64,000 bases of DNA from an uncultured Acidimicrobiia bacterium (GCA_963785035.1 CAWATG010000005.1:287-64286); one strand, 5' to 3'; shown: positions 3,016 through 64,000, counted from the first letter of the stretch. A program made the numbers and translations. Notes: a model not told the origin generated them from the sequence alone.

Positions 3016-3072
3016 AGGCGCACTCGATGTTTCCACCGAGCCCAGCAGCGTACCCGTATCCCGCCCAGAAGC

Positions 3073-5316: not shown

Positions 5317-5430
5317 GTTTCCGTATCGGCCCGCACCAACCACTTCTTGAAACCCATAAAGGCCCTGGACGTGATATCTGACACAAACGCCTCGATAAGC
5401 ACCTCGAACGGCCGTAGCTATAGTGCTCCC

Positions 5431-22443: not shown

Positions 22444-23734
22444 CTAGCGGTAGATCGTCCGGGTCGGCGTTTCGTTCGCGTCGGCATCCCAGCAGAGGAA
22501 CGGCTTGCCCGGGCGCGTCTTCCACGGCTTGAAGCTCCCGTCGCCCGCGACTTTGACAACCGATACACAGGCAAGACCCGCTCGCCGGGTGTGGTTGATC
22601 GTCCGCACGCCCGGCAGGATCCCCTGGATCGTGTCGTTCTCGAATTTCGCCTTGTTGAGGGCGTCGATGAGTGATGCCCGTGTGACCTGCCGTCCGGCCT
22701 CGCGTAGCCCAGCGACGAAGATGTGCGCGCTCATCCATCCGGTGAGGGAGATCTCATTCTTGGGATACTCACGCTTGTTCATCCATGTTCCGAACAGCTT
22801 GATTCCTTCTGGAATGGGTCTCGTCTCGAACGGCGCGAACTGCACCGGCACCAGGGAACCGGCCAAAAGGTAGGCGTTGGCCCGCATGAACGCATGGTCA
22901 TAGCCGTTGGGCAACAGCTGAATGGCAGCCAGATCCTGTTTCTTTATTTCCCGAGCAAGCGACAGCGCCGCATTTTGGTCCATGCAGTGCGAGATCAAGG
23001 TGACGCCAGCCGCGCTTCATCGCTCGGACCTCAGCAGAGAAATCGGTTTGGCCAAATGGCACGCTCGTCGAGAAATAGGCAACCTTGGCGGTTGGATATT
23101 TCTCGAATGCCCGCTTGCGATTCACAGCACAGTCTTTGGAGTTGGCGACCGCATAGGCCAAGACTCCTACTTTGTCCCTCCCGGCCAGCTCCGCGAGCAT
23201 CGGCGTCGTCGGGTACGGACAGGTAATGCAGCGACTTCCATTGATACCGAACAGGTTCTTGGGGCCCGCCCACTCATCGTTGATCCCCCACCCGAATGTT
23301 GGGACCGACCGATCGATGAGTTCACGCGCTCCACTGAACGAATAGATCGTGGCCACCGGCAGAACCGCAAACACATTGTCGTGATCCAACAGCGCCTGGA
23401 CCTCCTGCGCGTTCGCAGCAGTCCTGTCGTCCCGGCGGACGGCGAAGTTCAACCGACGTCCGTGCACCCCACCGGAGCTGTTGACCATGTCGAAGTACGC
23501 CTGCACCCCGTCATTGACCGAATCGTACGGGCCATTCGTGACGTTTGTGATCGATGCGACACCACCAACGCGAATCTCGGTATCAGTCACACCCGGCACC
23601 GTCTTGCGCGCCGTTCGAACACCGACCCGTTCCTCGATCGAGGAGGCATAGGGCGCGCTAGCCCCCGCCGACGTGACGGCGAATGCGGCAACCGACATCC
23701 CGACAGCCATGATCCATGACCAAGTACGCAACAC
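22444..23734 (-). pseudogene. ABC transporter substrate-binding protein (Leu/Ile/Val-binding type I PBP); one frame break as assembled
   Basis: ORFs 22898..23734 and 22444..22998 align end to end with the intact paralog at 23808..25073 (SAEVRAMK | AGVTLISHCMDQNAALSLAREIKKQ versus SAEVKAMKDAGVTMVNHCIDQNGALSLAKEMRKQ). The break is near ~23008. An N-terminal signal-like segment is present. Confidence 0.8.
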
Positions 23735-47832: not shown

Positions 47833-49314
47833 ATGGACGGCGCCCGAATGCAGCGGATCTCCACAGAAACAGACAATGGCGCCCGCCCCACACCGTTGCG
47901 AGCACAGCAACGGCGGGGCCACAGGGCCAAGCGCTTCGTAGCCATGCTCGGGCTGGCCGGTGTGACCGCTGCGAGCGGCCTGCCGTTGACCTCCGATGCG
48001 GCCCTTTCAGCAGTACCCGCAAAGATCGTCGGCTCCGGCGGTCCTATTGCCGCCAAAGCGTCGGTGGCAAGCATTGCAGCCACACCAACCGGCAACGGCT
48101 ACTGGCTCGTCGCATCCGACGGCGGCATCTTCTCCTACGGCGACGCCAAATTCTACGGCTCCACCGGAAACACCAAACTCAACAAGCCCATCGTCGGCAT
48201 CGCAGCCACACCAACCGGCAACGGCTACCGGCTCGTCGCATCCGACGGCGGCATCTTCTCCTACGGCGACGCCAAGTTCTACGGCTCCACCGGAAACACC
48301 AAACTCAACAAGCCCATCGTCGGCATCGCAGCCACACCAACCGGCAACGGCTACCGGCTCGTCGCATCCGACGGCGGCATCTTCTCCTACGGCGACGCCA
48401 AGTTCTACGGCTCCACCGGAAACACCAAACTCAACAAGCCCATCGTCGGCATCGCAGCCACACCAACCGGCAACGGCTACTGGCTCGTCGCATCCGACGG
48501 CGGCATCTTCTCCTACGGCGACGCCAAGTTCTACGGCTCCACCGGAAACATCAAACTCAACTCATCGATTGCCGGCATCGCAGCCACACCAACCGGCGAC
48601 GGCTACTGGCTCGTCGCATCCGACGGCGGCATCTTCTCCTACGGCGACGCCAAGTTCTATGGCTCGGCAGGCGGTAACTGCTTGAAGGGCAAGGTCACGT
48701 CGCTGGCGTCATCGAGTGCAGCCACGGGATATTGGATCGCTGCGGCCAACGGCGAGGTCCGCGCCTACAACGAGAGCACGACCGACTCCAAGGGCTGCAA
48801 CAATCCGCCTGCCGCCGACGCATCCGCTGCAGGTGGCGCGCCCCCGGCGGGAACAACGGCCGAGGCAGCAATCGCTCACGATATGTTCACGCGGCTCAAC
48901 ACCGAACGGGCACAGCGTGGTCTGCCGCTGCTGAGTTGGGACCCCGAGCTGGCGATACACGCTCGAGGCTGGAGTACCACGATGAGTGTCAGCAACAGCT
49001 TCCGCCACAGCGATCTCAACCCACTTCTGGCACGGTTCACCGTCGCCGCGGAAAACATTGCTTATGGGCGTGGTGAGGGAACCACAGCGGGCCACATTCA
49101 CGTCGCCTGGATGAAGTCAGAAGGTCACCGGGTCAACATGCTCGCACCGAACCTCGACCAGGTCGGGATCGGCGTCGTATGCGCTGCTGATGGAACGATG
49201 TGGGCAACAACGCAGTTCGGTCGTGTTCCCGGCTCGAAGAAGCCTTCCGGCTTCGGTCCGATCCCGAATACGTACCCGATCGTCGGCGAAGCAGCTGGCA
49301 ACGTCACCTGCTAA
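47833..49314 (+). CDS. Secreted repeat protein (five 42-aa repeats plus one degenerate) fused to a C-terminal CAP/SCP/PR-1-like domain
   Basis: The N-terminus is basic then hydrophobic (RRGHRAKRFVAMLGLAGVTAASG). It has 5 x IAATPTGNGY[W/R]LVASDGGIFSYGDAKFYGSTGNTKLNKPIVG plus a degenerate SSSAATGYWIAAANGEVRAY. The CAP-like tail has FRHSD, AENIAYG, WMKSEGHRVNML and GIGV. The start is ATG 47833 or 47848. Confidence 0.8.
   Translation: MDGARMQRISTETDNGARPTPLRAQQRRGHRAKRFVAMLGLAGVTAASGLPLTSDAALSAVPAKIVGSGGPIAAKASVASIAATPTGNGYWLVASDGGIFSYGDAKFYGSTGNTKLNKPIVGIAATPTGNGYRLVASDGGIFSYGDAKFYGSTGNTKLNKPIVGIAATPTGNGYRLVASDGGIFSYGDAKFYGSTGNTKLNKPIVGIAATPTGNGYWLVASDGGIFSYGDAKFYGSTGNIKLNSSIAGIAATPTGDGYWLVASDGGIFSYGDAKFYGSAGGNCLKGKVTSLASSSAATGYWIAAANGEVRAYNESTTDSKGCNNPPAADASAAGGAPPAGTTAEAAIAHDMFTRLNTERAQRGLPLLSWDPELAIHARGWSTTMSVSNSFRHSDLNPLLARFTVAAENIAYGRGEGTTAGHIHVAWMKSEGHRVNMLAPNLDQVGIGVVCAADGTMWATTQFGRVPGSKKPSGFGPIPNTYPIVGEAAGNVTC
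48073..48702 (+). repeat. In-frame tandem repeat, 5 x 126 bp; units 2 and 3 look identical
   Basis: Units start at 48073, 48199, 48325, 48451 and 48577. By eye, units 2 and 3 are base-for-base identical. Unit 1 differs at about 3 positions. Unit 4 differs by CGG->TGG and in its last ~25 bp. Confidence 0.9.
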
Positions 49315-51703
49315 CGATCCCAAAATGCCATCACGGTCGCTCGCCGACGCGCTGCATCCGCCGTTGCTAGCCGGTCGATACTTGCGGCACGGTTGACCCC
49401 GTAGTGCGTCACACGCCGGAAGCCCTCCTTGCGCCTTCACGCCCTGGAGAATCGGCAGCGTCAACCTCGACGGGAACGCGGGAGATCGCGCGATTGTGTT
49501 GACCGTCGTGCCCTCTTCGATCGTCTGGAAACGCCACGAGGGCCGATCTCCGCCAGGGGCAGCCAGGGTGACACGCAACCGCGAGCCCGCACGAAACACG
49601 TGACCGACAGGATCCAATGGCACGCGCACGAGCGTGTACACACCCCCTGGGAGCTTCTTGGAATCGCGACGAGCATGGGACGGGACCGCCTGAAGGAGCG
49701 TCGACACGCCAGGCAACAACGTCCGATGGGATGCCCGCAACCAGCCGCTCTGAACGTAGGTCTCCTTTCCATCAGGGCGCACCTCACTCAACGTCACCTG
49801 AAGGTCCGTATCAGGAGCGCTTGAGCGCACATACAACGACAGGCTTGACGGCCCCATGACCACAAGGTCGTCGCGCAATTTGGCTGTGACGTAGCCAAGC
49901 CCGTTTCCCCGCACTATGGGCGTCCACCGGTAGTCGGGCTGCGCCGCCCACGCGTCGCTCCCCACTTGACCGTCGAGTGTTTGGATGGGTCGCACCAATG
50001 GATCAGACCGATAGCGATCCGAACCCTTGACTCTTGGCGGTGTGCGACGCAGCGTACCCCGGCTACCGAGATAGAAAGCAGTCGGCTCGGCCTCGACCGG
50101 TGGCCACGACGCGAACGACATCTTCCAAGTCGGTTGCATCGCGCCCTTACCCTCAGACCCCGCGCCATTGTCCATGTACACCGTGACACGCGGATCAGAG
50201 GCGAAGATCCCCCGAGCCGCCGCAACGTCAGACATACCCGCAAACCGCGACTGTTCGATAGGTGCGGCCGGCGAGTCGGCAAGCGCGTCGTAGAACGCCT
50301 TCGACTCCGTCAACAAACCCGCCGGCACCACTGGGATCTCATCGGCGACAAACAACTTCAAGAACTCGAACCACCTCGTCAATGTCGCAGGACCGAGCGA
50401 ATCGATATGCGTGCCTCCCACGATCGAAACCCAGACATCGTCGGAAGGCAACAGCCGAATCATGTCCGGCCAGTGACCGCCCGTTTGCTCATCCTGAAAC
50501 GCACCGACCAAGAACACCGGAACCGAAATCTTCGGAGCCCATGCCGATGCCGATCTGGGCTCGTACACCGCCTTTGTGCGATACGGGTTGGACCGCAGGA
50601 CGGCGAACACGTCAACCGCTTGACCGTGGAGCCGCTGGTTCTCTTTGCAGCGTCGATCACCACGTTTCACGAGTTCACGCGCGTAGGGCAATCCGCCGCC
50701 GGGCGCGGCGCGCGCATTGTCCACGCGCGCCTCCAACCACGTTTTCGCAAAGCCGGTGTTGAACATCCCGCCCGGAAACCCAGGCTCGCGATACAAGTCG
50801 TCCGTCACCGACATCGCTGCCATAGCTGCGAGATGCGGCGGCCTCGTACCCGCAACGTAGAACTGAGCAATACCGGAATACGACAGGCCGACAAGGCCAA
50901 CCTTGTTCCCTTTCACGAATGGCTGAGCGGCGACAATCTCGACCGCGTCATAGCCGTCGTAGGTCGTCGGCAGGTCGAACAGGTCGAACGCACCACCCGA
51001 GCAGCCCGTTCCCCGCATCTGCACGCTCACCGATGCGAAGCCCAAGAGCGGGGCCAACAACGACCCGACGACCATCGAACTGTCCGGCGCGAGCGGGTCG
51101 GCACGTCGCGTTGGATCGAGGCGTTGCGCGGCGACGTCATCGATCATGCTGTTCGGCGCCGCGGCCTGATTCCCGGATATCTCAAGCACCGTCGGGAATG
51201 GACCGTCAGCCATCGTCTTTCCCGGTGGAAGCCGGACGACCATCGCCAACTCGACACCGTCACGCATCCGCACGTAGTTGAGGCCCGCTATGAGCTTCTG
51301 ACTCGTGTAGAGCGATGGATCTGGAACGACTGATCCGTCGAGCACGGCGAAGGGCACGGACGTCGCCGACCGTGGACCATGGCTCACCCGGTAGCCCGAA
51401 CCCGGTTTCACGCCGTAGAACACAAAGCTCCCGAAGCCATCTGCCGCGGCCTCTTGCGATGCTATCGCCATGTTCGTCGAGCAGTCGTAGATCTGTGCCC
51501 GGCTCAGCTTCGACGACGTTGGCTCGACCAACGCTGCCAAACGCTCGCAACGTCGCCTGCGTTACCACCCGCGCCTTTGCTGTCGGATCTGTGGCAGTCG
51601 GCAGTGCGACCGCTGGACCACAACCCACTGCAACCGCAACGATGATCGTCACCACCAGAAGCACCGGCGCGAAATCCGCCCTGTGTCGCAGCTTGACGCC
51701 CAC
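49117..51703 (-). pseudogene. CocE/NonD-family (S15 X-Pro dipeptidyl-peptidase-like) serine hydrolase, putative lipoprotein; one frame break near the N-terminus as assembled
   Basis: Signal peptide/lipobox MGVKLRHRADFAPVLLVVTIIVAVAVGC (ORF 51260..51703) -> LVEPTSSKLSRAQIYDC...hydrolase body with GLSYSG nucleophile (ORF 49117..51540). The break is near ~51535. The last ~65 codons overlap the convergent gene and may be a spurious tail. Confidence 0.7.
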
Positions 51704-51708
51704 TCACA

Positions 51709-54108
51709 TCACGTCGCTGTTGTGCGGCGAACCCACCACACCACCTCGAGCGCGACGATCGCGAACGCAACCATGACAGCGACCTCGAAACCGAGCGCTG
51801 CGAACGGAGCGTCCAGCGCGAAGAACTCGGCAGCTCGCGGTATCGCCACAACGGCGCATGCCGCAGTGACAATGGCTGCGACAAGACCGACCCGCCATGG
51901 CGTCAATGGACGGGCCGCCAGCACCAACACCCAAAGACTCACGGCGAGCAAGACCAGCGTTGCAACCGTCGTCGACTGCTCGCGACTGAGATCCCGATCA
52001 AGCGCGAGCCCATATGCCGACAGACACGTGAGAGCAGCAATCGCGCCCCCGGGCACAGCAAATCGCAGCACGCGACTAATGAATCCAGGCACGTATCGCG
52101 CGGTAGATGGTGCAAGCGATAGGAAAAATGCAGGGATTCCGATCGTGAGGTCACCAATCACCGTGACATGGCGTGGCAGGAGCGGAAATTGCCATCCCTC
52201 CTCGAGCACCATCTCCGTAATCACGATCACGACGGCCAACAGCATGCTGTAGACGGTCTTTGTCAAGAACAGGTTCGAGACCCGCTCAATGTTGGAAATG
52301 ACGCGTCGCCCCTCGCTCACGACTCCCGGCATCCTTGCGAACTTACCGTCAAGAAGCACGAGCTGCGCGACCGCACGAGTTGCCGCCGCTCCGGATCCCA
52401 TAGCGATGCCGATGTCAGCATCCTTCAATGCCAGTGCGTCGTTGACGCCATCGCCCGTCATTGCCACGACATGCCCGCTGGACTGCAGTGCACGCACCAT
52501 CGAGCGCTTCTGGTGGGGCGTGACACGACCGAACACAGCGTGTGTTTCCAGAAGTGCAGCAAGCTCCGCCTCATCTTCGGGAAGCTCTCGGGCGTCGAAG
52601 ATCGCCTCGGCGTTCGGAAGCCCTACTCGTGCAGCCACCGCACCAACGGTGTGCGGATTGTCGCCAGAGATCACACGAAGCCCGACGCCTTGCTCCGTGA
52701 AATATGCAAGCGTCTCGCGAGCATCATCTCGAACCTTTTCCTCCAACGTCACGAGTGCGACGGCATGCAGGGCCGACGGAAGCTCCTCTCCGCTGGGCTG
52801 TTCATCGCTCCTTGCGCAGAGCAACACGCGCTTCCCGGTGGCAGCAAGTTCCGTCGCTCGCACACGCGCAGCCGCGATCGCACCGGTGTCATTGATGCTG
52901 TCCCACAGCATTTCCGGGGCGCCCAGTACCCACGTGCCATGTGTCTCGAACGTGACCGAGCTCCACTTGCGAGCCGAGGAGAACGGCACCTGGCCTAGGC
53001 GAGTCCATGGCACCACCGGTGGAACGCAACCCTCGCCGACTGCGCGAAGCGTCGCATTCGCATCAGGATCAACGGCCATCGCACCGAGTGCTTCCTGGGC
53101 TCGCGCAACCCCGCTCTCATCGGCAACCGCTTCGATACCGGCGAACTCAACCTCGCCCTCGGTCAAGGTTCCCGTCTTGTCCAAACAGACGATGTCGACT
53201 CGGGCCAGTCCCTCCACTGCAGGGAGTTCCTGAACCAAGACCTTCCGTCGAGCCAAGGTCGTCGCTGCAACCGCAAAAGCAATGCTCGTCAACAGCACCA
53301 GTCCCTGGGGAACCATCCCGACGACAGCAGCAATGGTCGATCGGAGCGCGCCGGCAACGTCGCTGTCATGTGACGCGAACTGGCTCCAATACAAAAAACC
53401 GGCCACAGGAACAAGCGCCCACGTCACGAAACGCAGAATGACGTTGATGCCATCCATGAGCTCCGAACGCGTCAGCGCAAAACGGCGAGCCTCGATCGCG
53501 AGCTTCCGTGCATACGCCTGATCACCCACTCGTGTTGCCTGGAACTGGCCTGAGCCGGCTACCACGAAACTCCCCGAGAGCACCTCGTCGATCCAGACCC
53601 TTGACAACGGGATCCGATTCGCCGGTTAGTAACGACTCATCCAATTCGAGTCCGGTCGAAGTCCGAACGATGCCGTCACAGGGAACCTGATCGCCGACGC
53701 GAAGCACGACAGGAGGTCATCGAGCACGACATCATCGACGGCAATGTCATGTTCCGCGCCACCACGCACGACGCAGGCGTGCGGTGCGTTCAGTACAGCG
53801 AGGCGGTCAAGCGTTCGCTTCGCACGCAATTCCTGGACAATGCCGATCAAGGCATTCGACACCAACACGCCCACGAACAAGCCGTCTTGAATCGGCCCGA
53901 TCACGACGATGATGCCGAACATCACACCCAAGATCGCGTTAAAACGGGTAAAGATATTCGCAGATGCAATTTGGGCAAATGTTCTGCTCGTGCGCGCCGA
54001 GCTACGGTTGTCATCACCACGAGCGCGACGGTCAGCAGCCTCTGACTCCGTGAGCCCTTCCGGGTTCGTGACCCATGTGCTCAGCGACGCTTCACCAGTC
54101 TCAATCAC
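51709..54108 (-). pseudogene. Cation-transporting P-type ATPase (HAD-IC family); a pair of frame breaks ~100 bp apart as assembled
   Basis: I propose GTG 54108 as the start. Reading: ...DIAVDDVVLDDLL (ORF 53626..54234) -> LRVGDQVPCDGIVRTSTGLELDESLLTGESDPVVKG (ORF 53522..53707) -> IDEVLSGSFVVAGSG...CLDKTGTLT...GDGVNDALALKDADIGIAMG (ORF 51709..53607). Confidence 0.8.
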
Positions 54109-54133
54109 AATGATTGTGCCCGCAATTTCCTGA

Positions 54134-55369
54134 TCACTTCGGTGCGCGTGGGACAACGAGCATGACCTGACCTGTGTCGTCGTCCTCTCGAAGCTGGAAT
54201 CCGCACAGTTCCGCCAGGCCAGCGTGGCCTTCATCAGGACCGCTCGCGATCAGCTCGTCACCCGCGGAGAGACGGATGTTGCCACGCGGCCGATAGAAGT
54301 ACCGCCCGGCACGACGAATAGCGAGCAGGTAATAGCCCGTTTCCATCTCGAGTCGAAGTTCGCCCAGTTTCTTCCCGTCGACGGCAGAACCTGCTGCGAC
54401 TGGAACCCGCACGATGACCTCGTCAGAAGCGCCAAGCGCAACCGCCAACACGGGATGCATCTCCTCGCCCTTCTCGACAAGCCACACCATTTGCTGGGCG
54501 GCGTCGCCGATCTCCTCCGCAGCACCACCCAGGTGTAAGAGCCCTCTCAGCGATGACGGATCCACCGTTTGGGCAGCACCGCGCAAGACCCAGAGTTCGA
54601 GACGCTCCTTCATCTCATCGAGGCGGTCCTCCAGATGAGCAACCTCGGTCGCAAGTCCAAGGTCATTGAACAGCAACGAAGAATACGCAAGGCCGACTGC
54701 CACCTCCGAGACGTTTTTCATCTCGACCAACACATCCACAGCGCGGTCCAGATCGGTAATCGCCGGGTCTTCTTCGACCTCAGGAGCACGCCATTCCGGC
54801 GCTCCTGCAAGCGTGCGTAACGCGCCGATACCCGCCGCAGCACCACGCAGGAAAAGGACATCGTTCGGCATGAGCATCTCATCGCCATCGGGATCGATAA
54901 TCCATGCCTTGCCACGGCGCATGGCAACCACCCTCATCCCTACCTCGGTTGGTAACTCGACATCGGCGAGCGTCCTTCGGGTGAGTGCCGACGCTTCACG
55001 AATTCGAACTCGATGCGAGACCTCTTCGGCTGCCGCAAGGTCCGCGACCAAGGCCGGAGGGATACCCAAGTCGTGAGTGACAATGCGCGAAATATCACCT
55101 GCAGCATTTGCCATGCGCTCGATAGCGGAGACCACGTGGAGCACACTCGACATCTGCTCGGCCTCACGTGGCGAACGCGCCGCCAGCACGCAGGTCTCGC
55201 GCATGGCGTGCATGAGCTCAATCAGCACATCGCCGAGCTGATGCACCTCTTCGGCCATCCCGACGTCGCCGAAGAACAGCGCCGCGTACGCCAGGTCGAC
55301 CATCAACTCCGAGGTGTCCTTTGCCTCAGAGAGCATCGCCTTGAGATTTTTCGGTCGCTCGTCAGTCAT
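54134..55369 (-). CDS. Duplicated PhoU-like + TrkA-C (RCK C-terminal) domain regulatory protein
   Basis: Intact 411-aa ORF with two similar halves. Each half is a helical PhoU-like segment (DLAYAALFF.../VGLAYSSLLF...) followed by a TrkA-C-like beta domain (GMRVVAMRRG...DVLFLRG / YYLLAIRRAG...DELIASG). It starts 3 nt after the upstream stop. Confidence 0.65.
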   Translation of the reverse strand: MTDERPKNLKAMLSEAKDTSELMVDLAYAALFFGDVGMAEEVHQLGDVLIELMHAMRETCVLAARSPREAEQMSSVLHVVSAIERMANAAGDISRIVTHDLGIPPALVADLAAAEEVSHRVRIREASALTRRTLADVELPTEVGMRVVAMRRGKAWIIDPDGDEMLMPNDVLFLRGAAAGIGALRTLAGAPEWRAPEVEEDPAITDLDRAVDVLVEMKNVSEVAVGLAYSSLLFNDLGLATEVAHLEDRLDEMKERLELWVLRGAAQTVDPSSLRGLLHLGGAAEEIGDAAQQMVWLVEKGEEMHPVLAVALGASDEVIVRVPVAAGSAVDGKKLGELRLEMETGYYLLAIRRAGRYFYRPRGNIRLSAGDELIASGPDEGHAGLAELCGFQLREDDDTGQVMLVVPRAPK

Positions 55370-55372
55370 ACG

Positions 55373-56608
55373 TCACGTCAGTCCGAATACCACAATGGCC
55401 AGAATAAGCGACAGGGCGCCCAACAGATCGAGGCTTGAGGTCACGATGGGAATCCCATGATTGTCCGGGTCGAGTCCAAGGCGCCGCGACGTCACCGCAC
55501 CGTAGTAGCCGATCACCACGGCACAGGTCGTCGCGAAGAAACCCGCAAGCACGGAAACCCCGACCATCGTCGCCAATCCTGGGCCGCGCAGATTCACTAC
55601 GGACGCCGCAATTTCTGATGAGACACCGAGGAAAATGAACACTGGAACTGCGTAAACGTAGATTAGGAGAATATCGCCGCCCACCGTCTGCAGGGGCGAC
55701 CTGGACAAATCAAGAGTCCCCAGATGGAGTTTGGTGGACACCCTCGCCGCCAGAATGCCCCCAAGCGACCCGGCGTCCTCAAGAAATGGCGGGACCAACA
55801 CCAACAAGGCCGGGTACACCATAAATGAATCAAGACGTTTCTGAATCGTGATACCCGCGATCACATCGACGGTGCCGGCCAACACGAGCACGGGCGCGGA
55901 CTCGCGCACAATCCTGCGAACGATTGGCAGACGGCTTCGCAGGCTCATGACAAGCGACACGGTGGCACCGACCCCACAGATGACTGCGATCGCGGGCGTC
56001 ACCCACCGGATCCCAACAAGGTGCGTGGCCAGGAACAGCGCTGGGAGCGTCACCATGTCACCCGCGGCCGTCACGATCGGTGAGGCGACGTTATCGAGAT
56101 CCCAGCTCCTCCGGACACTTACCCAGGCGACGAACACCGTGATGCCCATCACCACGACCGATGACAGCAAGCCACCAATGACCGAGATCACAGCGAGGTC
56201 CAACACGCTGATCGAATCGACGAGACCGAATCCGACCGACACGACACGCGGAAGAACCGCAAGCACTAACGAGATCGAGACAGACAGGGCGAAAGACGCG
56301 ACCAAATTCTGTCCGAACAGCGTGTCGCGCCGGCGCGACAGCACAAACGTTCCAGCGTGAATCGCAGTGCCGAGACGGCTGCCGAGCGCGCCGAAGATGT
56401 TGCCCCGCATACCAATCGCAGCGGGGACGAGCACCAACAGACCCGGGAGACTCTCGAGGGTCCCGGTAATCGAACCGAGCGTCAGACCCGCGAGAAGATC
56501 ACCGGCAGAGGAGATAAGCAGCGCGACGAATCCCGCTCGGACCCCGATCGGGTCTGAGCGCACCAACGCGCGGAATCGCGCGACGAGGACGCGCAACCAG
56601 CGGAACAT
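55373..56608 (-). CDS. Tandem MgtE-type transmembrane-domain (SLC41-like) divalent-cation transporter lacking the cytosolic MgtE N/CBS domains
   Basis: Intact 411-aa polytopic protein with two homologous halves (PGLLVLVPAAIGMRGNIFGALGSRL... / PALLVLVPPFLEDAGSLGGILAARV...; DNVASPIVTAAGD / DNHGIPIVTSSLD). Confidence 0.7.
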   Translation of the reverse strand: MFRWLRVLVARFRALVRSDPIGVRAGFVALLISSAGDLLAGLTLGSITGTLESLPGLLVLVPAAIGMRGNIFGALGSRLGTAIHAGTFVLSRRRDTLFGQNLVASFALSVSISLVLAVLPRVVSVGFGLVDSISVLDLAVISVIGGLLSSVVVMGITVFVAWVSVRRSWDLDNVASPIVTAAGDMVTLPALFLATHLVGIRWVTPAIAVICGVGATVSLVMSLRSRLPIVRRIVRESAPVLVLAGTVDVIAGITIQKRLDSFMVYPALLVLVPPFLEDAGSLGGILAARVSTKLHLGTLDLSRSPLQTVGGDILLIYVYAVPVFIFLGVSSEIAASVVNLRGPGLATMVGVSVLAGFFATTCAVVIGYYGAVTSRRLGLDPDNHGIPIVTSSLDLLGALSLILAIVVFGLT

Positions 56609-56721
56609 GGGTACTCGGAGGCTCGTTCATCAGGCATTCTCGGTCTCATCGGCCCGCGCAAGGGTAGTCTCCCGCCGATGGTCCTTCGTGCCACCGCCGT
56701 GGGCGCGTAGTCTCCTCCCCC

Positions 56722-57366
56722 GTGCGGAAGACCGGTTTTGAATGCGGCCAGGTTCTCTTCCTTACCCACAGCGGCGACGTCGACGAGCGAGGTGTCCGGG
56801 TCGTCATCGAGGCGATCCAGGATCAGCGCCTCACCGTTGTATCCGTCGATGGCGAAGAGTTAGATGCCTCCTTCGCCGAGGACAGCACCGTGTGGGCCAA
56901 TTTCCTCTCACCCCGCGGCATGTTCGTTGTCGAGATGTTGGTCAGCCGCTCCGGTAAGACGACAGCCGCGCTCGACGTTCCCGACAACCTGCACGAAGCG
57001 CAACAACGCCAACACGTCCGAGTACGAGCCGACATTCCGATCTCATGCCTTCTCCTCGACGATGAGGCCAACGAGTTCTCCCAGTTCGTCGCCCGCATGA
57101 TCGACATCAGCGGCGGAGGCATGGCGATCGCCGGTGACGTCATTGCACCGGATCGATCGCGCGTCGTCTGTTCGATCGCTCTACCAAACGAAGCGCCGGC
57201 CATTGCCATTGGACTCGTTCTCGGCTCCGACCTTCCCACCAAGGAAGGGCACACGGCCCACACTCTGCGCGTGCGATTCGATGTGATCTCCGAGGGAGAA
57301 CGCGACCGGGTCATCCGTTGGGTCTTCGCCAACCTCCGCAAGCTCGCACAGGAGGGCCTCGCCTGA
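56722..57366 (+). CDS. PilZ-domain c-di-GMP-binding protein (YcgR-like architecture)
   Basis: RxxxR (QRQHVR) and D-x-S-x-x-G (DISGGG) lie about 35 residues apart, preceded by an N-terminal beta-rich domain. The GTG start is uncertain. Confidence 0.7.
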   Translation: MRKTGFECGQVLFLTHSGDVDERGVRVVIEAIQDQRLTVVSVDGEELDASFAEDSTVWANFLSPRGMFVVEMLVSRSGKTTAALDVPDNLHEAQQRQHVRVRADIPISCLLLDDEANEFSQFVARMIDISGGGMAIAGDVIAPDRSRVVCSIALPNEAPAIAIGLVLGSDLPTKEGHTAHTLRVRFDVISEGERDRVIRWVFANLRKLAQEGLA

Positions 57367-57386
57367 CCGCGTCGTAGTACCCACGT

Positions 57387-60300
57387 CTACCGAAAGTCTC
57401 TGGAGTGCAACGATCCGGCCAGGCTGATCGGTAAGCGCGTGATCCGCGTCGCGACAAGGTTGGTCACCCCCTGATGGCGTTCCACGACACCTCGTACCCG
57501 TAACGCCGGCGCACCACGAGCCGCGACACGAAACCGCTTCCACACGCCCCTCGAACAGATCACATTGATGAGACCTGTCTCATCCTCGAGATTCAGAAAC
57601 ACCGTTCCCTTCGCCGTTTCGGGCTGCTGCCGATGCGTCACGATTCCGGCAACTTCCACCACACTGCGATCAGAAACGGTGCGCATCTGTTCGGCCGTGA
57701 TGACACCTTGCGCCGCAAGGTCATCACGCACGAACTCCGTCGGATGTCGCCCCGGCGACATCCCCATCGACCACAGATCTGACGCCAGCTCCTCGGACTC
57801 GCTCATCCCCGGAAGCTCGGGTGCATCCACGCCGCAGAGCAGCCCTGGCAAGGTCGCCGCCACCACCCCATCAGCGGTGACTCTGGCTCGAGCGTCACGC
57901 AACGCTCCCGCAGCCCACATCGAAGTTCGCCGCGCTTGACCGAAGGACTGTTCAAACACGCCCGCCGCTGCGAGTACCTCGACGACATCGACAGTGGCAC
58001 CCGTACGGCGGACAAAATCCTCGAGACTTTCGAACGGGCGCTCAGTACGCACACCGTCGACATAGTCGAGAAACACATCGTGCAGCCCACGCACGGACCG
58101 CAGCCCCATCCGTACGGCATGAACCGATGGCTCCGCATACCAACCGGGCAATGGGCGACCAATAGGCTCGACGTGTGACGGACGCGGCTCAAGGGTCGCG
58201 TCACGACGTGAGGCGTTGATGTCGGGACCGAGCACTTCGATACCGTGACGACGGGCATCGCGCACAATCGTGTGCGGCGAGTAAAAGCCCATCGGTTGCG
58301 CGTTGAGCAACGCACAAGCAAACTCCGCTGGGTAGTGATACTTGATCCAGGCGCTCGAGTACACGAGATACGCGAAGCTCACCGAATGACTCTCGGGAAA
58401 ACCGAAGTTTGCAAATGCCTCGAGCTTCTTCGTGATGTCCTGGGCAACCTCGCCGGTGATACCTCGATCGGCCATGCCGTCCAACAATCGAGCACGGAGC
58501 TTGGCCATGCGAACCTGCGACCGTTTCGAGCTCATCGCCTGACGAAGCTGATCGGACTCCGCCGGCGTGAAGCCAGCAACGTCGATTGCCATCTGCATCA
58601 GTTGCTCCTGGAACAGCGGCACGCCCAATGTCTTCGCCAGGCACTTCTCGAGCAGCGGGTGTGGATAGGTGACCGCTTCCTCGCCGTTGCGGCGCCGGAG
58701 GTATGGATGCACGGACCCGCCTTGGATCGGACCAGGTCGGATCAGGGCGATCTCGATCACCAGGTCGTAGAAACACCGCGGTCGTAGTCGTGGCAGGGTC
58801 GCCATCTGCGCTCGACTCTCCACCTGGAACACGCCGATGGTGTCAGCGCTACAGAGCAGGTCATAGACCTCATCTTCTTGAGAAATGGTTGCCAGGTCGA
58901 TCTCGACACCTTCATAACGGGCGATGAGGTCGACAGCGAGGTGCAACATGGTGAGCATGCCCAGGCCGAGAAGATCGAACTTCACCAAGCCGGCAGCAGC
59001 ACAATCGTCCTTGTCCCACTGAAGGACCGATCGGCCTTCCATACGCGCCCACTCAATCGGGCAGTACTCCACCAACGGTCGATCCGCCATCACCATCCCG
59101 CCTGAATGGATCCCGAGATGGCGCGGAAAATCGAGCACCTGCGCGGCGAGATCGAGCGCGAGAGGTGGGATAGCCGGCGGTCGCGTCGCTACCCCCTCGG
59201 CGATATCAGCACCCGATGCGCCGGCTTCAGCCAGCTCAGCAAATGCTTCGGGCCCAGCACTCCAACGCTGTACCCATTTTCCGAGTGCATCGGCTTGGCC
59301 CGGCGCGACGCCCACAACTTTTGCCATCTCACGCAGCGCGGAACGCGGCCGGTACGTAATCACGTTCGCAACCTGGGCAGCACGCTCACGGCCGTAGCAG
59401 TCATAGACGTACTGGATCACTTCCTCACGACGTTGATGTTCGATGTCAAGGTCGATATCGGGTGGACCGTCACGCTCAGGTGACAGGAAGCGTTCGAAGA
59501 GCAGGCCCAGCGCGACGGCATCTGCCTTGGTCACCCCGAGCGCGTAACACACGGCACTGTTCGCGCTGCTCCCCCGTCCTTGGCAGTAGATGTCCGAACG
59601 ACGACAAAAATCAACGATGTCGAACAGCAACAGGAAATACCCGGCAAAGCCGAGCTGATCGATGACCTCCAACTCGTGTGTCGATTTGATGCTGCGCCTG
59701 CTCATGTTGTGGATGCGTCAATGGGTAGTAGACAGCGGCGCCGCGCCAGACGAGCTGACGCAACCAACTCATCTCGGTATGGCCATCGGGCACCGGATAA
59801 TCAGGCAAGTTCGGCGCGGCCAGCCGCAGATCGAACGCGCAGGCCTCCGCAATCTCAACGGTGCGCTCAATCGCTCCAGGCCAACGTGCAAACCTCCGCA
59901 TCTGCTCAGCCGGCGAGCGAAGATGCGCGAGTGGCGAAGCCGGCAGCCATCCGTTTGCCTCGTCAAGCGTTCGGCGTGCCCTGATTGCGCTGAGTGCTGT
60001 CGCCAACGGGCGCTGTGCAGCAGTTGCATAGTGAACGTTGTTTGTTGCCACAACGTTCACTCCCGCAGTGAGTGCAATGTTCGCAAGTGCATCGTTGCGA
60101 TGTCGATCGAGTGGATCATTGTGATCCCAGAGCTCCACGAAGACGCGGTCACGCCCAAACGTCGCCGTGAGGACGTCGAGTTCGCGGCGGGCAGCTGCAG
60201 GCCCGTCAGCCATGAGTGCTGCAGGTACCGTCCCCTTACGACATCCAGTCAGGACGAACCAGGCATCATTGTGTGTTGCAGTATTTCCAGTTGCAGCATT

Positions 60301-60726
60301 TCCATCGGAGACGATGAACAGGCGCCACGCGATGCCGCTCCTAGGGTTGCGAGGTCACAATGGGGCGCGCCTTTCTTCGCCGCGGAGCTGCGCCTGACTG
60401 ATCGCACGTGCCAAGCGCGTGTATCCGACAGGACCTTGCGCCAACACGAGCAGATGCCGTCCTGGTGGATCCGGTGCCCCTGGTTGCGTGGCGCTGCCGT
60501 CGAACGTCATCTCCGCACCGAAGACCGTCGGCAAACCGAGGGGACGCGCCGCCTGAGCGAAACGCACGACGCCGTAGAAGCCATCGTGATCAGTCACCGC
60601 TAGCGCACCGAGACCAAGGCGCACAGCTTCTTCGACAAGCTCCTCGGGGTGACTCGCACCATCAAGAAACGAGAAGTTCGTATGACAGTGCAGCTCTGCG
60701 TATCGTCCGTCTCCCACGTTCTCCAC
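57387..60726 (-). pseudogene. dnaE2: Error-prone DNA polymerase III alpha subunit DnaE2; in-frame TGA plus one frame break as assembled
   Basis: PHP domain (YAELHCHTNFSFLDGAS). An in-frame TGA at 60355-60357 sits inside conserved sequence (...LRGEERRAPL*PRNP...WFVLTGCRKG...). The frame break is near ~59690 (HEQAQHQI | KSTHELEVIDQLGFAGYFLL). The rest is collinear with DnaE2 (CQGRGSSANSAVCYALGVT...). Confidence 0.85.
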
Positions 60727-60784
60727 GCCCTACCCAGCCAAGCTCCTACGGCCTATTCCGCCGCACCCGAGAGCCCAGACGATA

Positions 60785-60800
60785 ACGAACATATGTTCGT
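60785..60800. promoter_or_regulatory. LexA (SOS) box, perfect 16-bp palindrome ACGAACATATGTTCGT
   Basis: It matches the Gram-positive/actinobacterial SOS-box core CGAAC-N4-GTTCG exactly. It is centred about 65 bp upstream of the dnaE2 start (60726, minus strand) and about 215 bp upstream of the divergent HNH gene ATG (61008). Confidence 0.8.
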
Positions 60801-61007
60801 ATCGTCAATTGGCCGGCCGCACGATCCAGCGAATCCGCTCGGCATGACTGGTCGAACCCGATCTGCGAGAACGACACTCCGCGGTCATGATGACGACAGG
60901 TGAGAGCTTCAACGTCCCCCTGGTTCACCCCAGTACCGGCGGCGCCACAACGCCCCGATCCGGACGTCTGCGGAATAACTGTCATATACCGCCGTCACAC
61001 TGTGGGT

Positions 61008-62090
61008 ATGACATCGGAATCCCACGCAGAGCCCAGCGACTCGCAACGCGTCCTCGCACTCATCGAGAAGCGTGATCTCGTTGAGCGAGAGCTTGTCGGC
61101 GCGCTCGCCGAATGGGACTTCGAACAGCGTTGGGCACTCGACGGGGCAGTCCATCCCATCCCCTGGCTCGTCCATCACTGTGCCATCACACGCGCCGAGG
61201 CATCGCAACTGGTCGCCAAAGCACGCGTCGTACAACGATGCGACGACATTGCCGACGCGCTTGCCGACGGAATACTCAGCACGTCGCACCTCGGGCTCCT
61301 TGCGCGCGCCGGACGACATCGCGAGCAACTGCTCGAAGAGCATCAAGGCGTATTGGTAGACGCAGCGCAGTCCGTTCCACCCGAGCAATACCGACAGGTC
61401 GTGCAACGCTGGCAGGCACTCGCCGACGACATCATCGCCGATGCCGAAGCAGTCGACGCCTTCGAGCACCGTCGCCTGCACGTCTCGACCACCTTCGAAG
61501 GCTCCGTCGCGATCAATGGCCGACTCGACCCTGAGGGTGGCGCTCGCCTCATCGCCGCCCTCAAGGACGCTCTGCCTCCGAGCGGCGGAACCCCCGCACA
61601 GCGTCGCGCCGATGCACTCGTCGCTCTCGTTACCGGCGAACGGCCGGGTGTCAAGCTCCATCTCGTCGCCACCGAAGCGACGCTCACAACCTCGCCTGCA
61701 TCCCCGGGCTCCTCAGCGGTCCTCGATCAATCCAGTAGCGAGATCTCGGGGCTCGGTACCGTCCCAGCCAGCATCAGCCGGCGCCTCGCGTGCGACGCAA
61801 TCATCGACACACGCGACACCGCTGGACTTTCACTCGGGCGCTCGCGACGGCTGGTCTCTCGGTCGCAGCGTCAGGCGCTCACCGTTCGTGATGGGGGCTG
61901 CTCATTCCCTGGTTGTGACCGTCCCCCCGAATGGACCGACGCTCATCACCTCCAACACTGGGCAGATGGCGGCAACACCGATCTCGAAAACCTCGTGCTG
62001 CTGTGTCGGCGTCATCACGTGTTGTGCCACGAGGGAAGGTGGCGCCTCGAACGCATGACCGACGGCCGTCTTATGGCAGTACCGCCGTAG
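61008..62090 (+). CDS. DUF222-domain HNH endonuclease (13E12-repeat-family-like)
   Basis: Intact ORF. It has an N-terminal DUF222-like helical region and a C-terminal HNH motif (RDGGCSFPGCDRPPEWTDAHHLQHWADGGNTDLENLVLLCRRHHVLCHEG). ATG 61008 is preferred over the 60900 start. Confidence 0.8.
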   Translation: MTSESHAEPSDSQRVLALIEKRDLVERELVGALAEWDFEQRWALDGAVHPIPWLVHHCAITRAEASQLVAKARVVQRCDDIADALADGILSTSHLGLLARAGRHREQLLEEHQGVLVDAAQSVPPEQYRQVVQRWQALADDIIADAEAVDAFEHRRLHVSTTFEGSVAINGRLDPEGGARLIAALKDALPPSGGTPAQRRADALVALVTGERPGVKLHLVATEATLTTSPASPGSSAVLDQSSSEISGLGTVPASISRRLACDAIIDTRDTAGLSLGRSRRLVSRSQRQALTVRDGGCSFPGCDRPPEWTDAHHLQHWADGGNTDLENLVLLCRRHHVLCHEGRWRLERMTDGRLMAVPP

Positions 62091-62117
62091 CCACCTGACA
62101 CGTCTCGCCGAGCACAC

Positions 62118-63764
62118 TCAGTCGTAGATCGCAGCAATACCGGCGCGGCCGCCTTCGAGGACCACTAGGCATGCGACATCGTTCACGACCATCTGCCATA
62201 ACGCTCGGCGACGACGCGCGATGCGATCCCACCAACCAACATCGTGCGTCCACGGCCCGTTCCACGCGCTGATCTCACCACCGCCCAGTGGGAGTGCGCG
62301 AGACCTCACCCATCCAGGATCGCCGGAAACTTCCCCACGCCCAGAAACTGCGATGGCATTGCCATATACATCAAGTAACTCTGCAGGCAACGCTGGCTCG
62401 AAGACACGCGATGGCGGCGGTGTCGGTACCGCTCCCGGCCACGCGCCAGGACGCGCTCCATCACCTCGCGCTTCTCGCGGCTCGCCCCAGGACACCCATC
62501 GGACCCGCTCACTCGGCAGTCGACCACCTTGAGGCATTGCCGTCACGACTGACTCATGACCCAACATCGCCTGCACCCGTGCCAAAGCTCGCTTGGCACG
62601 ATCAGCACTCGCGAGATCTCCCCCCCAAAAACCCAGCTGGCGACCATCAATGGTCACAACTTCCTCGGGGAGGAGCCGCAACACCAGGAGTCCACCGGTG
62701 GCAACCTCGGCGTCGGCAAGCTCGGCGTCGGCCGGCGCGCCCGTCCGTACCCGTGCCCACACCGAGCCAGCTCTCAAGCTGCCAGCGTGCCCGATCGGCT
62801 AGCGCGCTCGGCGTGAAGGCACCATCGTGTCGCCATGCCCGTGACCAATGCTCGCCATGCTCGGTTTCCGCTTCGATCACGATACGCGTACACGCCATCC
62901 CGCGATCAGCCAGTCGAGTCAGCATGTGATCGGCAAGCGCCTTCGCTGCAAACGTTGCCAGGTCGACACGTTGACAAGGTGGATCGAAATTGTGTGTCTC
63001 GATCATCTCCGGGGGCACTTCCGCCAGTACTGACGGTGCATCATCCAGGCCGCGTGCCCATCGATGTCGACGTAACCCATCAGGACCAAAGCGCACATGC
63101 ACTGCCGACGCCGGCAATGCAGCAAATGCACCCATCGTCGGTAAGCCCAGCCGGATCAAAAGCGCGCCGAAATCAGGATCCCCCAACACGCGCACCGACC
63201 TCGGCGCCAGGAACAACGCTGACTCCCCGGGCGCTATCACCGCATCGACACGTGCTGCTTGACGCGCAGCGAAACGACTATCGGCAATCCCCACCCGTAC
63301 TGCAGGAACCCCAAGGTCCGTCACCGCCGATCGGACACGCTCGGCAAGCATGTCATCACCACCGAAATACCGAGAGGGTCCACGTGTAGGAAACGACAAC
63401 ACGCCAGGCCTGTCCATCTCAAGACGCGGCGTGAGTGTCTCAACTGCTCGTGCAACTTCTTCAAATGCCCGCGCCTCACCAATGAGATCGGCATCAACTG
63501 CAACCAGCCCAGGCGCTCGAGCTTCCGCGACGCGCGCCGACGCATCCCGATCGTTACCCCAAGCGCACGGGCCTCACCCGATACCGCTCGCACCACGGGC
63601 GCACCCGTCGCCGACTCGAATACTGCGAAGGGAGCCCACGACAAGGTTTCGTCCCGCCGACGCCACGCAACGACTGGCCAATCAGGACACCAGACGCAGC
63701 AGGTCCGCTCAGCCCATACCCCTTCAACCGGTCGCTGCCCAGCCGATCGCTGTTCATCAGACAT
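62118..63764 (-). pseudogene. imuB: ImuB (Y-family-polymerase-like mutasome subunit); two frame breaks as assembled
   Basis: Reading: MSDEQ...CVWCPDWPVVAWRR...ARALGVTIGMRRR -> EARAPGLVAVDADLIGEARAFEEVARAVETLTPRLEMDRPGVLSFPTRGPSRYFGG... -> RTGAPADAELADAEVATGGLLVLRLLPEEV...WWDRIARRRRALWQMVV. Breaks are near ~63540 and ~62765. Confidence 0.8.
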
Positions 63765-63782
63765 CTGTGGCAAGCATCCACT

Positions 63783-64000
63783 TCAGCCAACGAGTGCGAG
63801 CGTTTCCCTGCCACGCGCCTCAACGCGAACAGTGCGCGCACGGTCGATCAGGTGACCGCCGCCTGATTCGAGCCCACGCCACGCCGACCTCTCGGCATAG
63901 ACCCGTACTGCAGCCTCTGCCGGCCATGGACCCAAGATCGCGAGTACGGCATCGCGTTCACGCGCCCGCCCAACAAGGCGATGTGCATCACCGGTCCGTA
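63783..64000 (-). CDS. imuA: ImuA' (RecA-fold mutasome subunit), C-terminal fragment; gene continues beyond the window
   Basis: The minus-strand frame reads ...RTGDAHRLVGRARERDAVLAILGPWPAEAAVRVYAERSAWRGLESGGGHLIDRARTVRVEARGRETLALVG, with a stop at 63783-63785, 18 nt before the imuB ATG. Confidence 0.6.
   Translation of the reverse strand, partial: RTGDAHRLVGRARERDAVLAILGPWPAEAAVRVYAERSAWRGLESGGGHLIDRARTVRVEARGRETLALVG

Follow-up and report, generated by a model that had tools for sequence, protein, structure and literature searches.

What divides an SOS mutasome locus in which imuA', imuB and dnaE2 lie on one strand, and a DUF222-HNH endonuclease gene lies between imuB and dnaE2 on the other? 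The locus occupies the end of a 64-kb stretch of DNA (the window) from an uncultured Acidimicrobiia bacterium. The initial annotation saw there a mutasome split and broken around an intact endonuclease gene, with a LexA box in a promoter shared by dnaE2 and the endonuclease. We consider it probable (about 75%) that this is instead a standard split, LexA-controlled Acidimicrobiia mutasome in which dnaE2 has its own operator, a lineage-acquired HNH gene sits in the gap, and the breaks are most likely assembly errors.

Genes of the Locus

57387–60726, minus strand: dnaE2, error-prone DNA polymerase III alpha subunit (NCBIfam NF004225 and Pfam); ORF pieces as assembled, 57387–59705, 59611–60213 and 60355–60726
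59680, minus strand: dnaE2 lesion 1, a +1 insertion, TCGTGTGTCGA in the window and TCGTGTTCGA in relatives (blastn against L001 and L162)
60305–60379, minus strand: dnaE2 lesion 2, three +1 insertions at ~60312, ~60325 and 60379 (comparison with relatives)
60779–60808, minus strand: predicted dnaE2 promoter, −35 TTGACG (60803–60808), 18-nt spacer, −10 TATCGT (60779–60784)
60785–60800, no strand assigned: predicted LexA (SOS) operator ACGAACATATGTTCGT (unique exact match and clade matrix)
60809–61007, plus strand: non-coding region 5' of the HNH gene (non-triplet indels relative to relatives)
61008–62090, plus strand: intact DUF222-HNH endonuclease gene, 13E12-like family, 360 residues (PF02720 and PF01844)
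62091–62117, no strand assigned: 27-bp spacer between the convergent stops of the HNH gene and imuB (read from the sequence)
62118–63773, minus strand: imuB, catalytically inactive Y-family accessory factor (tblastn with the ImuB of L007); ORF pieces 62118–62777, 62647–63417 and 63321–63773
62744–62749, minus strand: imuB break, +4 (against L162 and L163)
63534, minus strand: imuB break in a CGCGCG run, with GC added or one base lost (tblastn with the ImuB of L007)
63783–64000, minus strand: 3' end of a probable imuA', cut by the window edge (NCBIfam NF058630)

Every feature claimed in the initial annotation was found, exactly or within a few bases, and the mutasome gene order stands, with dnaE2, imuB and the partial imuA' all on the minus strand of the window. 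The 772-residue piece of dnaE2 scores 1093 bits against the NCBIfam family "error-prone DNA polymerase" (NF004225; cut-off 939), which marks it as a DnaE2-type C-family polymerase; the intact orthologue of the relative L001 scores 1423 bits. Pfam places PHP, DNA_pol3_alpha, finger, HHH_6 and OB domains in the gene, two reading frames of which match the intact 1113-residue DnaE2 of L001, at 97% and 89% identity. The gene call in L001 starts at the equivalent of position 60717.

The ImuB of L007 aligns with imuB over its full length (tblastn; three HSPs in two frames, 54%–64% identity), and similarity to the IMS/Pol IV families is weak in Pfam and NCBIfam. The gene starts ~10–19 nt past the end of imuA' at 63783, directly downstream of it, and in relatives imuA'-homologous segments likewise lie directly upstream of imuB. 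The last 71 residues of imuA', all that the window holds, match the ImuA' family NF058630 (E = 9e-11) at profile positions 94–153 of 153; the score of 41.7 bits falls short of the 65-bit cut-off, which applies to the full length.

The HNH gene lies in a plus-strand ORF spanning 60900–62090, with its real start at the ATG at 61008; N-terminal homology was not found upstream of 61032. The claim that the gene is intact over 1.08 kb was borne out; both domains of the 360-residue product exceed their Pfam cut-offs (DUF222, 56.4 bits; HNH, 27.5 bits). The 15 columns that are invariant in an alignment of 40 sequences are all conserved in the protein, and the metal and catalytic residues of the HNH motif are in place (invariant residues present: C298, C303, D311, H313, H314, N328, C333, H336, H337 and H341). 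Its dN/dS is 0.30 against L001, and the C-terminal part of its AF2 model (pLDDT 87) resembles HNH folds. In the region 60809–61007, indel lengths between the window and its relatives are not multiples of three, no Rfam match was found, and RNA folding is not unusual (z = +0.6). At the other end, the 27 bp reported between the HNH stop (62090) and the imuB stop codon (62118–62120) were read directly from the sequence, and no terminator-like site was found in this spacer.

A Predicted Operator inside the dnaE2 Promoter

The perfect palindrome at 60785–60800, identified earlier as an SOS box, is real. Its core, CGAAC-ATAT-GTTCG, is the sole perfect CGAAC-N4-GTTCG in the 64-kb window, and it matches the clade consensus TATCGAACATATGTTCGATA. 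A weight matrix derived from 105 boxes of relatives gives it 28.4 bits, and nothing else in the 64 kb reaches 8 bits. It fills the 18 nt between the −35 and −10 elements of the dnaE2 promoter (TTGACG-box-TATCGT), which is the only sigma-70-like site within 60600–62300. From 60779 to ~60811 the window and its four closest relatives (L001, L162, L163 and L164) are invariant except at a single position of the operator's N4 spacer, where the window has A and the relatives have G; the flanks vary. In relatives, dnaE2-proximal boxes are followed by TAnnnT. Such a TCGAAC-N4-GTTCGA-type palindrome lying over a promoter is, judged by sequence and conservation, a genuine actinobacterial LexA-type operator.

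imuA' and imuB would form one operon, with an operator of their own beyond the window edge; a box before imuA' is seen in relatives, and the imuA' promoter of the window lies beyond position 64000. dnaE2 would be a second transcription unit with the LexA operator as its promoter spacer. Because the operator fills the interval between −35 and −10, bound LexA would block RNA polymerase, and RecA-stimulated cleavage of LexA after DNA damage would free the promoter.

Origin of the Gap between imuB and dnaE2

The initial annotation described the mutasome as split by the HNH gene, a description that comparison with other Acidimicrobiia does not favor. imuB lies upstream in 51 relatives, and in 33 of these the gap exceeds 250 bp (median 2.5 kb); the window gap, from the imuB stop to the dnaE2 start, is 1.39 kb and comprises the dnaE2 leader and promoter, the 199-bp non-coding stretch and the HNH gene. 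The gaps of the 33 split relatives hold 0.7–8 kb of unrelated genes (AMP-binding enzyme, ABC-2 transporter, DUF3152, F420 reductase, beta-lactamase, methyltransferase, GNAT, MOSC and cupredoxin). A dnaE2-proximal GAAC-N4-GTTC is present in 30 of these 33, versus two of the 18 contiguous loci (gap of 250 bp or less; Fisher p = 1.7e-8). By these counts the class most often keeps imuB and dnaE2 apart and provides dnaE2 with a dedicated box; the HNH gene occupies a pre-existing variable spacer and need not have caused the split.

None of the dnaE2 loci of 80 relatives contains the gene itself, which is found at the same place in four near-identical relatives only; cluster members of at least 90% identity whose loci were examined all have it at this imuB-dnaE2 site. 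This locus comparison upholds the earlier view that the gene is not ancestral here, and it is best described, from its distribution, as a lineage-specific acquisition. As to mobility, the 64-kb window contains one DUF222-HNH copy, and the gene has neither terminal inverted repeats nor an adjacent recombinase gene. Where target-site repeats had been envisaged, there is one 15/18 direct repeat bracketing the gene (60931–60948 and 62077–62094), which one of 500 shuffles reaches and which is absent in the four relatives. The marks of a transposable element (inverted repeats, target-site duplication, and a transposase or integrase) were not found for this gene.

It is nevertheless conceivable that an HNH element inserted into a contiguous imuB-dnaE2 operon, bringing the LexA box with it, and that dnaE2 then adopted the box. 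A box of its own is usual for a member of the DUF222-HNH family, contiguous imuB and dnaE2 without a dnaE2 box occur in some close relatives (L002, L004 and L014), and the direct repeat would be in keeping with an insertion. Several observations make this sequence of events highly improbable. The box and −10 in the window (GTTCGT-TATCGT) have the same geometry as in relatives with other cargo (GTTCGG-TACGGT), and the box lies away from the HNH start, unlike those of the family. L012 and L013, with a spacer of 59–121 bp, a box and no cargo gene, offer a plausible pre-insertion state, and the bracketing repeat is missing in the four relatives. Entry of the HNH gene into an existing gap is the reading we retain.

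Control of the HNH Gene

The "shared divergent promoter" proposed earlier is overstated: the only sigma-70-type promoter found faces dnaE2, and the HNH ATG is 207 nt from the box. The DUF222-HNH family as a whole is strongly associated with LexA boxes. Among metagenomic homologues, searched from −400 to +60 around the start, 17 of 61 have a perfect box and 44 have none; of all 24 boxes in 454 kb, 19 fall within these 28 kb. Family boxes normally overlap the start codon or lie 15–30 nt before it, and 58 of the top 120 homologues begin with MF, that is, with ATGTTC, the right half of the box. In M. tuberculosis, 13E12 genes are bound by LexA (PMC3381160).

The window gene has no start-proximal box of its own; with the clade matrix, not even a degenerate second box was found near its start. 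A canonical plus-strand promoter was not found either, the nearest candidate being a possible −10 (TATCGT, 60800–60805) that overlaps the last base of the box and has only a weak −35. This plus-strand TATCGT also overlaps the dnaE2 −35, which alone could account for its conservation.

SOS induction would probably de-repress the HNH gene, divergent from dnaE2, by way of the dnaE2 operator; we regard such co-regulation as plausible, at roughly even odds. Only a little less credible is a LexA-independent promoter of its own within 60809–61007, with the operator serving dnaE2 only and the adjacency incidental. The distance points that way (207 nt, versus 0–30 nt in homologues), as do the sole consensus promoter being directed at dnaE2, the lack of a second box by the HNH start and the 44 of 61 homologues without a perfect box; the invariance of the plus-strand TATCGT in both lineages and the LexA association across the family speak for control by the operator.

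Frameshifts in dnaE2, imuB and Other Genes

The breaks counted in the initial annotation (one in dnaE2 plus a TGA, two in imuB) are indeed present in the assembly and were placed by comparison with relatives. By tblastn the dnaE2 frame switches at 59680–59711. The three insertions of lesion 2 take ~70 nt out of the reading frame and uncover the TGA at 60355–60357; a conserved KKGAPHCDLATLGAAS stretch can be read in the shifted frame (three-frame translation against L001 and five relatives), and the window is here one in-frame 15-nt (GNAAT) repeat unit short of relatives. The contrast drawn between a broken mutasome and an intact HNH gene is overstated: in the window gltB and a P-type ATPase are each frameshifted twice, an S15 peptidase is frameshifted too, and at the local rate of ~0.7 indels/kb a 1.08-kb gene has a chance of ~0.47 of escaping. 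A solute-binding protein gene looks truncated by Pfam coverage, with no indel placed there.

Eight frameshifting indels in coding sequence could be positioned by comparison with relatives, and each of them is an insertion in the window. An intact 1113-residue dnaE2 is present in four independent short-read assemblies, and imuB is uninterrupted at 62744 in L162 and L163, the two relatives covering it; the break at 63534 is covered by no close relative. The dN/dS values of dnaE2 and imuB are 0.084 and 0.14, respectively. The frameshifts and the TGA are most likely assembly insertion errors rather than gene decay, because every placeable indel is an insertion, non-mutasome genes are hit and relatives are intact, and because conserved residues persist in the shifted frame and dN/dS is low. 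The three +1 insertions of dnaE2 sum to +3, as does the ATPase pair (+1, +2), which is a little odd for random error.

Were the lesions real, slippage-type insertions would very recently have inactivated the mutasome and other genes, leaving fresh pseudogenes beside a functional, selfish HNH gene. The sequence as given is broken, several insertions resemble slippage duplications of short motifs (GT to GTGT at 59680, CCGT duplicated at 62744, GC in CGCGCG at 63534), and indels seem denser in 51–64 kb, the only part comparable with close relatives. We think this unlikely: bacterial mutation is biased towards deletions, so an insertions-only pattern counts against it, the housekeeping gene gltB is frameshifted twice, and dN/dS values of 0.08–0.14 give no sign of relaxed selection. 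Moreover, wherever the four relatives cover a window-specific site they are intact (63534 being outside their coverage), and escape of the HNH gene is expected ~47% of the time by chance. Assembly error remains our preferred account of these breaks.

Comparison with Known Systems

The mutasome has been called a "contiguous or split multigene cassette" (PMC3919608). Contiguous imuA-imuB-dnaE2 cassettes, for example in Caulobacter and Pseudomonas (Abella 2004 and Erill 2006, as cited in PMC3919608 and PMC3381160), have a single operator for the operon. The window shares their gene order, single orientation and LexA control, but, unlike them, has a second operator at dnaE2, as do 30 of the 33 split relatives. 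With the M. tuberculosis mutasome (Rv3395c-Rv3394c and Rv3370c, with an operator of the TCGAAC-N4-GTTCGA type; PMC3381160) it has in common the three genes, a probable imuA'-imuB operon and a dnaE2 unit that stands apart under an SOS box of its own. The M. tuberculosis units are at different chromosomal positions, with LexA peaks at ~3.78 and ~3.81 Mb (PMC3381160), whereas those of the window are co-oriented and 1.4 kb apart, as in many Acidimicrobiia.

The HNH gene resembles the 13E12 repeats of M. tuberculosis (LexA-bound insertion elements with DUF222, most with HNH) in its DUF222 plus HNH architecture, its LexA-box association and its patchy, lineage-specific distribution. It differs in being present once in the 64-kb window, in the copies of close relatives all being at the same locus, and in its box, which belongs to the dnaE2 promoter 207 nt upstream and is not start-proximal; a phage attachment function is not evident in the window gene. 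The C-terminal 50–80 residues of the model superpose on the Geobacter Gme HNH nicking endonuclease (4h9d), EcoKMcrA (6ghc) and the HNH domains of Cas9/IscB, with Foldseek probabilities of 0.96–0.99 and an rmsd of 2.7 Å for 4h9d_B but weak E-values (0.14 or higher). As in solved stand-alone HNH nucleases, there is a Cys/His metal site with H...N...H catalytic residues; unlike them, the protein has a ~280-residue DUF222 part without a solved match.

By its sequence, then, the locus is of a known kind, an ordinary damage-inducible error-prone-polymerase locus, and the HNH gene belongs to a known SOS-linked family. About half of that family start inside a LexA operator (MF, ATGTTC), which suggests a further reading that we put forward as improbable: DUF222-HNH genes could be nuclease elements that parasitize the SOS response and depend on a LexA operator, the operator-less copy in the window having settled by that of dnaE2. 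Another possibility is that such elements land preferentially at the imuB-dnaE2 junction. If they are indeed SOS parasites, one LexA site would co-induce a DNA-cutting enzyme and an error-prone polymerase, and break formation would be coupled to mutagenic repair.

Gene Content and Close Relatives

The initial annotation described imuA'-imuB, an HNH gene, dnaE2, and a LexA box at this locus, and its gene map holds up in ORF listing and domain scans.

Features of the locus

57387-59705, 59611-60213, and 60355-60726, minus strand: dnaE2, in three pieces (ORF listing and domain scan)
60785-60800: LexA-type box ACGAACATATGTTCGT, the sole perfect CGAAC-N4-GTTCG within 64 kb
60808-60803 (-35, TTGACG) and 60784-60779 (-10, TATCGT), minus strand: dnaE2 promoter with an 18-nt spacer (consensus scan)
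61008-62090, plus strand: HNH gene, an intact ORF (DUF222, 56.4 bits; HNH, 27.5 bits)
62118-62777, 62647-63417, and 63321-63773, minus strand: imuB, in three pieces (ORF listing and domain scan)
63783-64000, minus strand: final 71 codons of imuA' (NF058630 ImuA', E 9e-11)

The 772-aa piece of dnaE2 scores 1093 bits against the NCBIfam model NF004225, "error-prone DNA polymerase" (cut-off 939), and 27 bp separate the stop of the HNH gene (62090) from the imuB stop codon (62118-62120). The locus is a split LexA-regulated mutasome together with an HNH gene resembling those of the M. tuberculosis 13E12 repeat family, both of kinds already known. A PilZ-domain gene (56722-57366) lies directly downstream of dnaE2, a position kept in close relatives. 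Elsewhere in the window, a tyrosine-recombinase (phage integrase family) gene (1661-3184, minus strand) adjoins a large PAS-GGDEF-EAL signalling gene (3073-6000, minus strand).

Acidimicrobiia MAGs are the overwhelming source of homologues of both the HNH gene and dnaE2. The nearest relative, the Logan short-read contig L001, is 94.2% identical to window positions 51015-62699 and has the same gene order (PilZ gene, dnaE2, HNH gene, imuB), with an intact dnaE2 of 1113 aa. Three other short-read assemblies (L162, L163, and L164) contribute members of the 90%-identity HNH cluster, with the HNH gene at the same locus as in the window; dnaE2 of L162 is also intact (1113 aa), and imuB of L162 and L163 is unbroken over the portion covered. 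Between the window and L001 (51015-62699), dS is 0.11-0.12 in the dnaE2-HNH-imuB block, lower than the 0.16-0.26 of flanking genes, which could reflect recombination or chance.

Frameshifts in dnaE2, imuB, and Other Genes

The initial annotation set a broken mutasome against an intact HNH gene. The breaks are present as assembled, but gltB, a P-type ATPase gene, and a peptidase gene are also hit, and with 8 events in about 11.5 kb locally, the chance that a gene of 1.08 kb stays unbroken is about 0.47. All frameshifting coding differences from L001, L162, and L163 are insertions in the window.

Insertions in the window relative to close relatives (position, size, gene)

51444, +1, S15 peptidase (49117-51663, minus strand)
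53590, +1, P-type ATPase (51709-54105, minus strand)
53709, +2, P-type ATPase (51709-54105, minus strand)
59680, +1, dnaE2
about 60312, +1, dnaE2
about 60325, +1, dnaE2
60379, +1, dnaE2
62744-62749, +4, imuB

The ATPase gene also has an in-frame stop (53626-53628), and it and the S15 peptidase gene are intact in L001. At 63534, a site outside the coverage of the close relatives, imuB is broken a second time, by an extra GC in a run of CGCGCG or by the loss of one base from it. The conserved dnaE2 segment KKGAPHCDLATLGAAS remains encoded, in a shifted frame. gltB (glutamate synthase large subunit, 27642-32402, minus strand) lies in three frames, with breaks at about 29.7-29.9 kb and about 28545, and an 880-aa fragment of it is entered as a separate protein in the source database (100% identity). 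A GC3 frame plot for mapping frameshifts across the window gave noisy output, the codon-position bias being too weak.

We regard the dnaE2 and imuB breaks as probably consensus errors of the long-contig assembly, because the spectrum is insertion-only over unrelated genes, including a housekeeping gene, and because orthologues are intact in four short-read assemblies and selection is unrelaxed (window-L001 dN/dS of 0.084 for dnaE2 and 0.14 for imuB, with 0.03-0.23 in neighbouring genes). Recent slippage mutations, real rather than introduced by assembly, are an unlikely source of the same broken frames. Apparent pseudogenes that are probably assembly errors are, without a read check, not evidence for lost induced mutagenesis.

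A solute-binding protein gene (22444-23734, minus strand) that adjoins an intact paralogue (23808-25073) looks truncated, its ORF spanning only Peripla_BP_6 positions 1-187 of 343; it is probably a further frameshift, with no indel placed. In the variable linker of the dnaE2 PHP domain, a 15-nt tandem repeat encoding GN(A/G/T)AT (about 60270-60305, minus strand) has two units in the window and three in L001, L162, and L163, an in-frame difference.

The imuB-dnaE2 Junction across Acidimicrobiia

A DnaE2 scan of one genome per species yielded 80 loci at 55-74% amino-acid identity, in which neighbours were located by tblastn with the window's ImuA', ImuB, and HNH proteins. Most carry co-oriented imuA'-imuB-dnaE2, and the distance from imuB to dnaE2 ranges from about 0 to 8 kb. 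The gap is at most 250 bp in 18 loci, in two of which a GAAC-N4-GTTC box immediately precedes dnaE2. It is larger in 33 loci (0.7-8 kb, median 2.5 kb), and here the dnaE2-proximal box is found in 30, a difference in frequency between contiguous and split loci with a Fisher p of 1.7e-8. For another 23 loci imuB is not within reach, and dnaE2 has a box in 19. Judged by nearest relatives, the cargo of the gaps is mutually unrelated: an AMP-binding enzyme, ABC-2 permease, DUF3152, F420-dependent reductase, beta-lactamase, O-methyltransferase, GNATs, MOSC, and cupredoxin (example junctions: L005, 7466-9998; L011, 4207-9986; L012, 1060-1119). Since 33 loci are split, 30 of them boxed, a split cassette in which dnaE2 has its own operator is the norm of the class Acidimicrobiia. 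This pattern agrees with the "contiguous or split" mutasome cassettes of the literature (PMC3919608; PMC3381160).

In all 80 loci the imuB-dnaE2 gap lacks an HNH homologue (one weak match, in L055, is non-adjacent), and the gene is found at this site only in the four close relatives. The initial proposal that the HNH gene split the mutasome is unlikely to hold, the split being common in relatives that lack the gene and have other cargo in the gap; the HNH gene occupies a variable spacer, and does so in this lineage only. Two loci (L012 and L013) have a box-bearing spacer of 59-121 bp without a cargo gene, plausibly the pre-insertion state. A search of the HNH gene's surroundings for terminal repeats or a target-site duplication found nothing beyond one direct repeat flanking the coding region, CAGTACCGGCGGCGCCAC and CAGTACCGCCGTAGCCAC (60931-60948 and 62077-62094), which matches at 15/18 bases. 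One shuffle in 500 reached this match. In the four close relatives, however, the left copy has diverged and the repeat is not conserved; it is probably due to chance.

The LexA Operator and Its Promoter

The perfect CGAAC-N4-GTTCG SOS box described at 60785-60800 is well supported, being conserved in the four close relatives and fitting the clade consensus TATCGAACATATGTTCGATA, drawn from 105 boxes of relatives. It scores 28.4 bits on the clade matrix, against less than 8 bits for every other site in the window, and around the HNH start a scan with this matrix found no further LexA box, not even a degenerate one. The dnaE2-proximal boxes of relatives run straight into a TAnnnT -10 (GTTCGG-TACGGT), and the window's geometry toward dnaE2 is identical. 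A consensus scan of 60600-62300 gave a single promoter, on the minus strand, whose 18-nt spacer consists of the box and a single base to either side of it. From 60779 to about 60811 the window and its four close relatives agree at every position except for one in the box's N4 spacer; substitutions, and indels in non-multiples of three, flank this block. Sequence and comparison thus show the conserved, predicted operator inside the spacer of the dnaE2 promoter.

Because the indels in 60900-61007 are of this kind, that stretch is taken as non-coding, and since there is also no N-terminal homology upstream of 61032, we place the HNH start at the ATG at 61008, 207 nt from the box. A longer ORF from the ATG in the box (60793) was rejected; it stops after 36 codons, in another frame, with no N-terminal homology. 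Rfam has no match to the 5' region of the HNH gene, and the folding of this region is not unusual. A plus-strand TATCGT (60800-60805) abuts the box, and the HNH gene may be transcribed divergently from a LexA-controlled promoter. The "shared divergent promoter" of the initial annotation is overstated: the promoter found faces dnaE2, and on the HNH side the -35 is weak and the box distant.

From what is known of the SOS response and the M. tuberculosis mutasome (PMC3381160), LexA would repress dnaE2 and imuA'B until its RecA-mediated cleavage, after which ImuA', ImuB, and DnaE2 would carry out mutagenic lesion bypass. That the HNH gene would be de-repressed through dnaE2's operator we put at about even odds.

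The DUF222-HNH Family and LexA

In a 40-homologue alignment, the residues that are invariant in the Cys/His metal site and in the H-N-H catalytic core are all present in the window protein. Its dN/dS against L001 is 0.30 (28 synonymous and 25 non-synonymous changes), which places the gene under purifying selection. The AF2 model (pLDDT 87) matches solved structures only in the C-terminal HNH part (Gme HNH, McrA, and Cas9/IscB HNH domains), and a fold search with the DUF222 domain found no solved homologue. PADLOC gave no defence-system match, and PHROG matches are confined to the generic HNH domain.

A metagenome scan with the 40-homologue alignment returned 80 loci (L082-L161), 61 with enough upstream sequence. 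A perfect GAAC-N4-GTTC lies between -400 and +60 of the HNH start in 17 of the 61, and these 28 kb of start regions hold 19 of the 24 boxes in the whole 454 kb (for example, L082, 4917-4928; L087, 1317-1328; L110, 1449-1460). In seven loci the gene starts, in frame, at an ATG or GTG within the box; in the remaining boxed loci the box is 15-30 nt upstream of the start. An "MF" N-terminus, mostly MFD or MFG, is found in 58 of the 120 best homologues (P0001-P0120), and the codons ATG-TTC-G(A/G) of an MFD/MFG start make up the box's right half. The window copy is atypical for the family in having neither an MF start nor a box of its own, the latter also a difference from the M. tuberculosis 13E12 genes, for which LexA control is known. 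The metagenomic loci contain no imuB, and a dnaE-like gene occurs in only one, 2.6 kb away, so there is no general HNH-mutasome linkage. Judging from these start-proximal boxes, the DUF222-HNH family appears to be broadly SOS-wired beyond mycobacteria.

For the window locus itself the consequences are small, since it has the textbook form of a split mutasome and a clear predicted operator. Across the class, the imuB-dnaE2 junction repeatedly takes unrelated cargo, and dnaE2 is then nearly always boxed, a natural experiment in operon splitting without loss of regulation. The LexA control of M. tuberculosis 13E12 genes would extend to environmental DUF222-HNH genes, many with the start codon in the operator, and because these too are LexA-linked, the DNA-damage response becomes a likelier seat of DUF222-HNH function.
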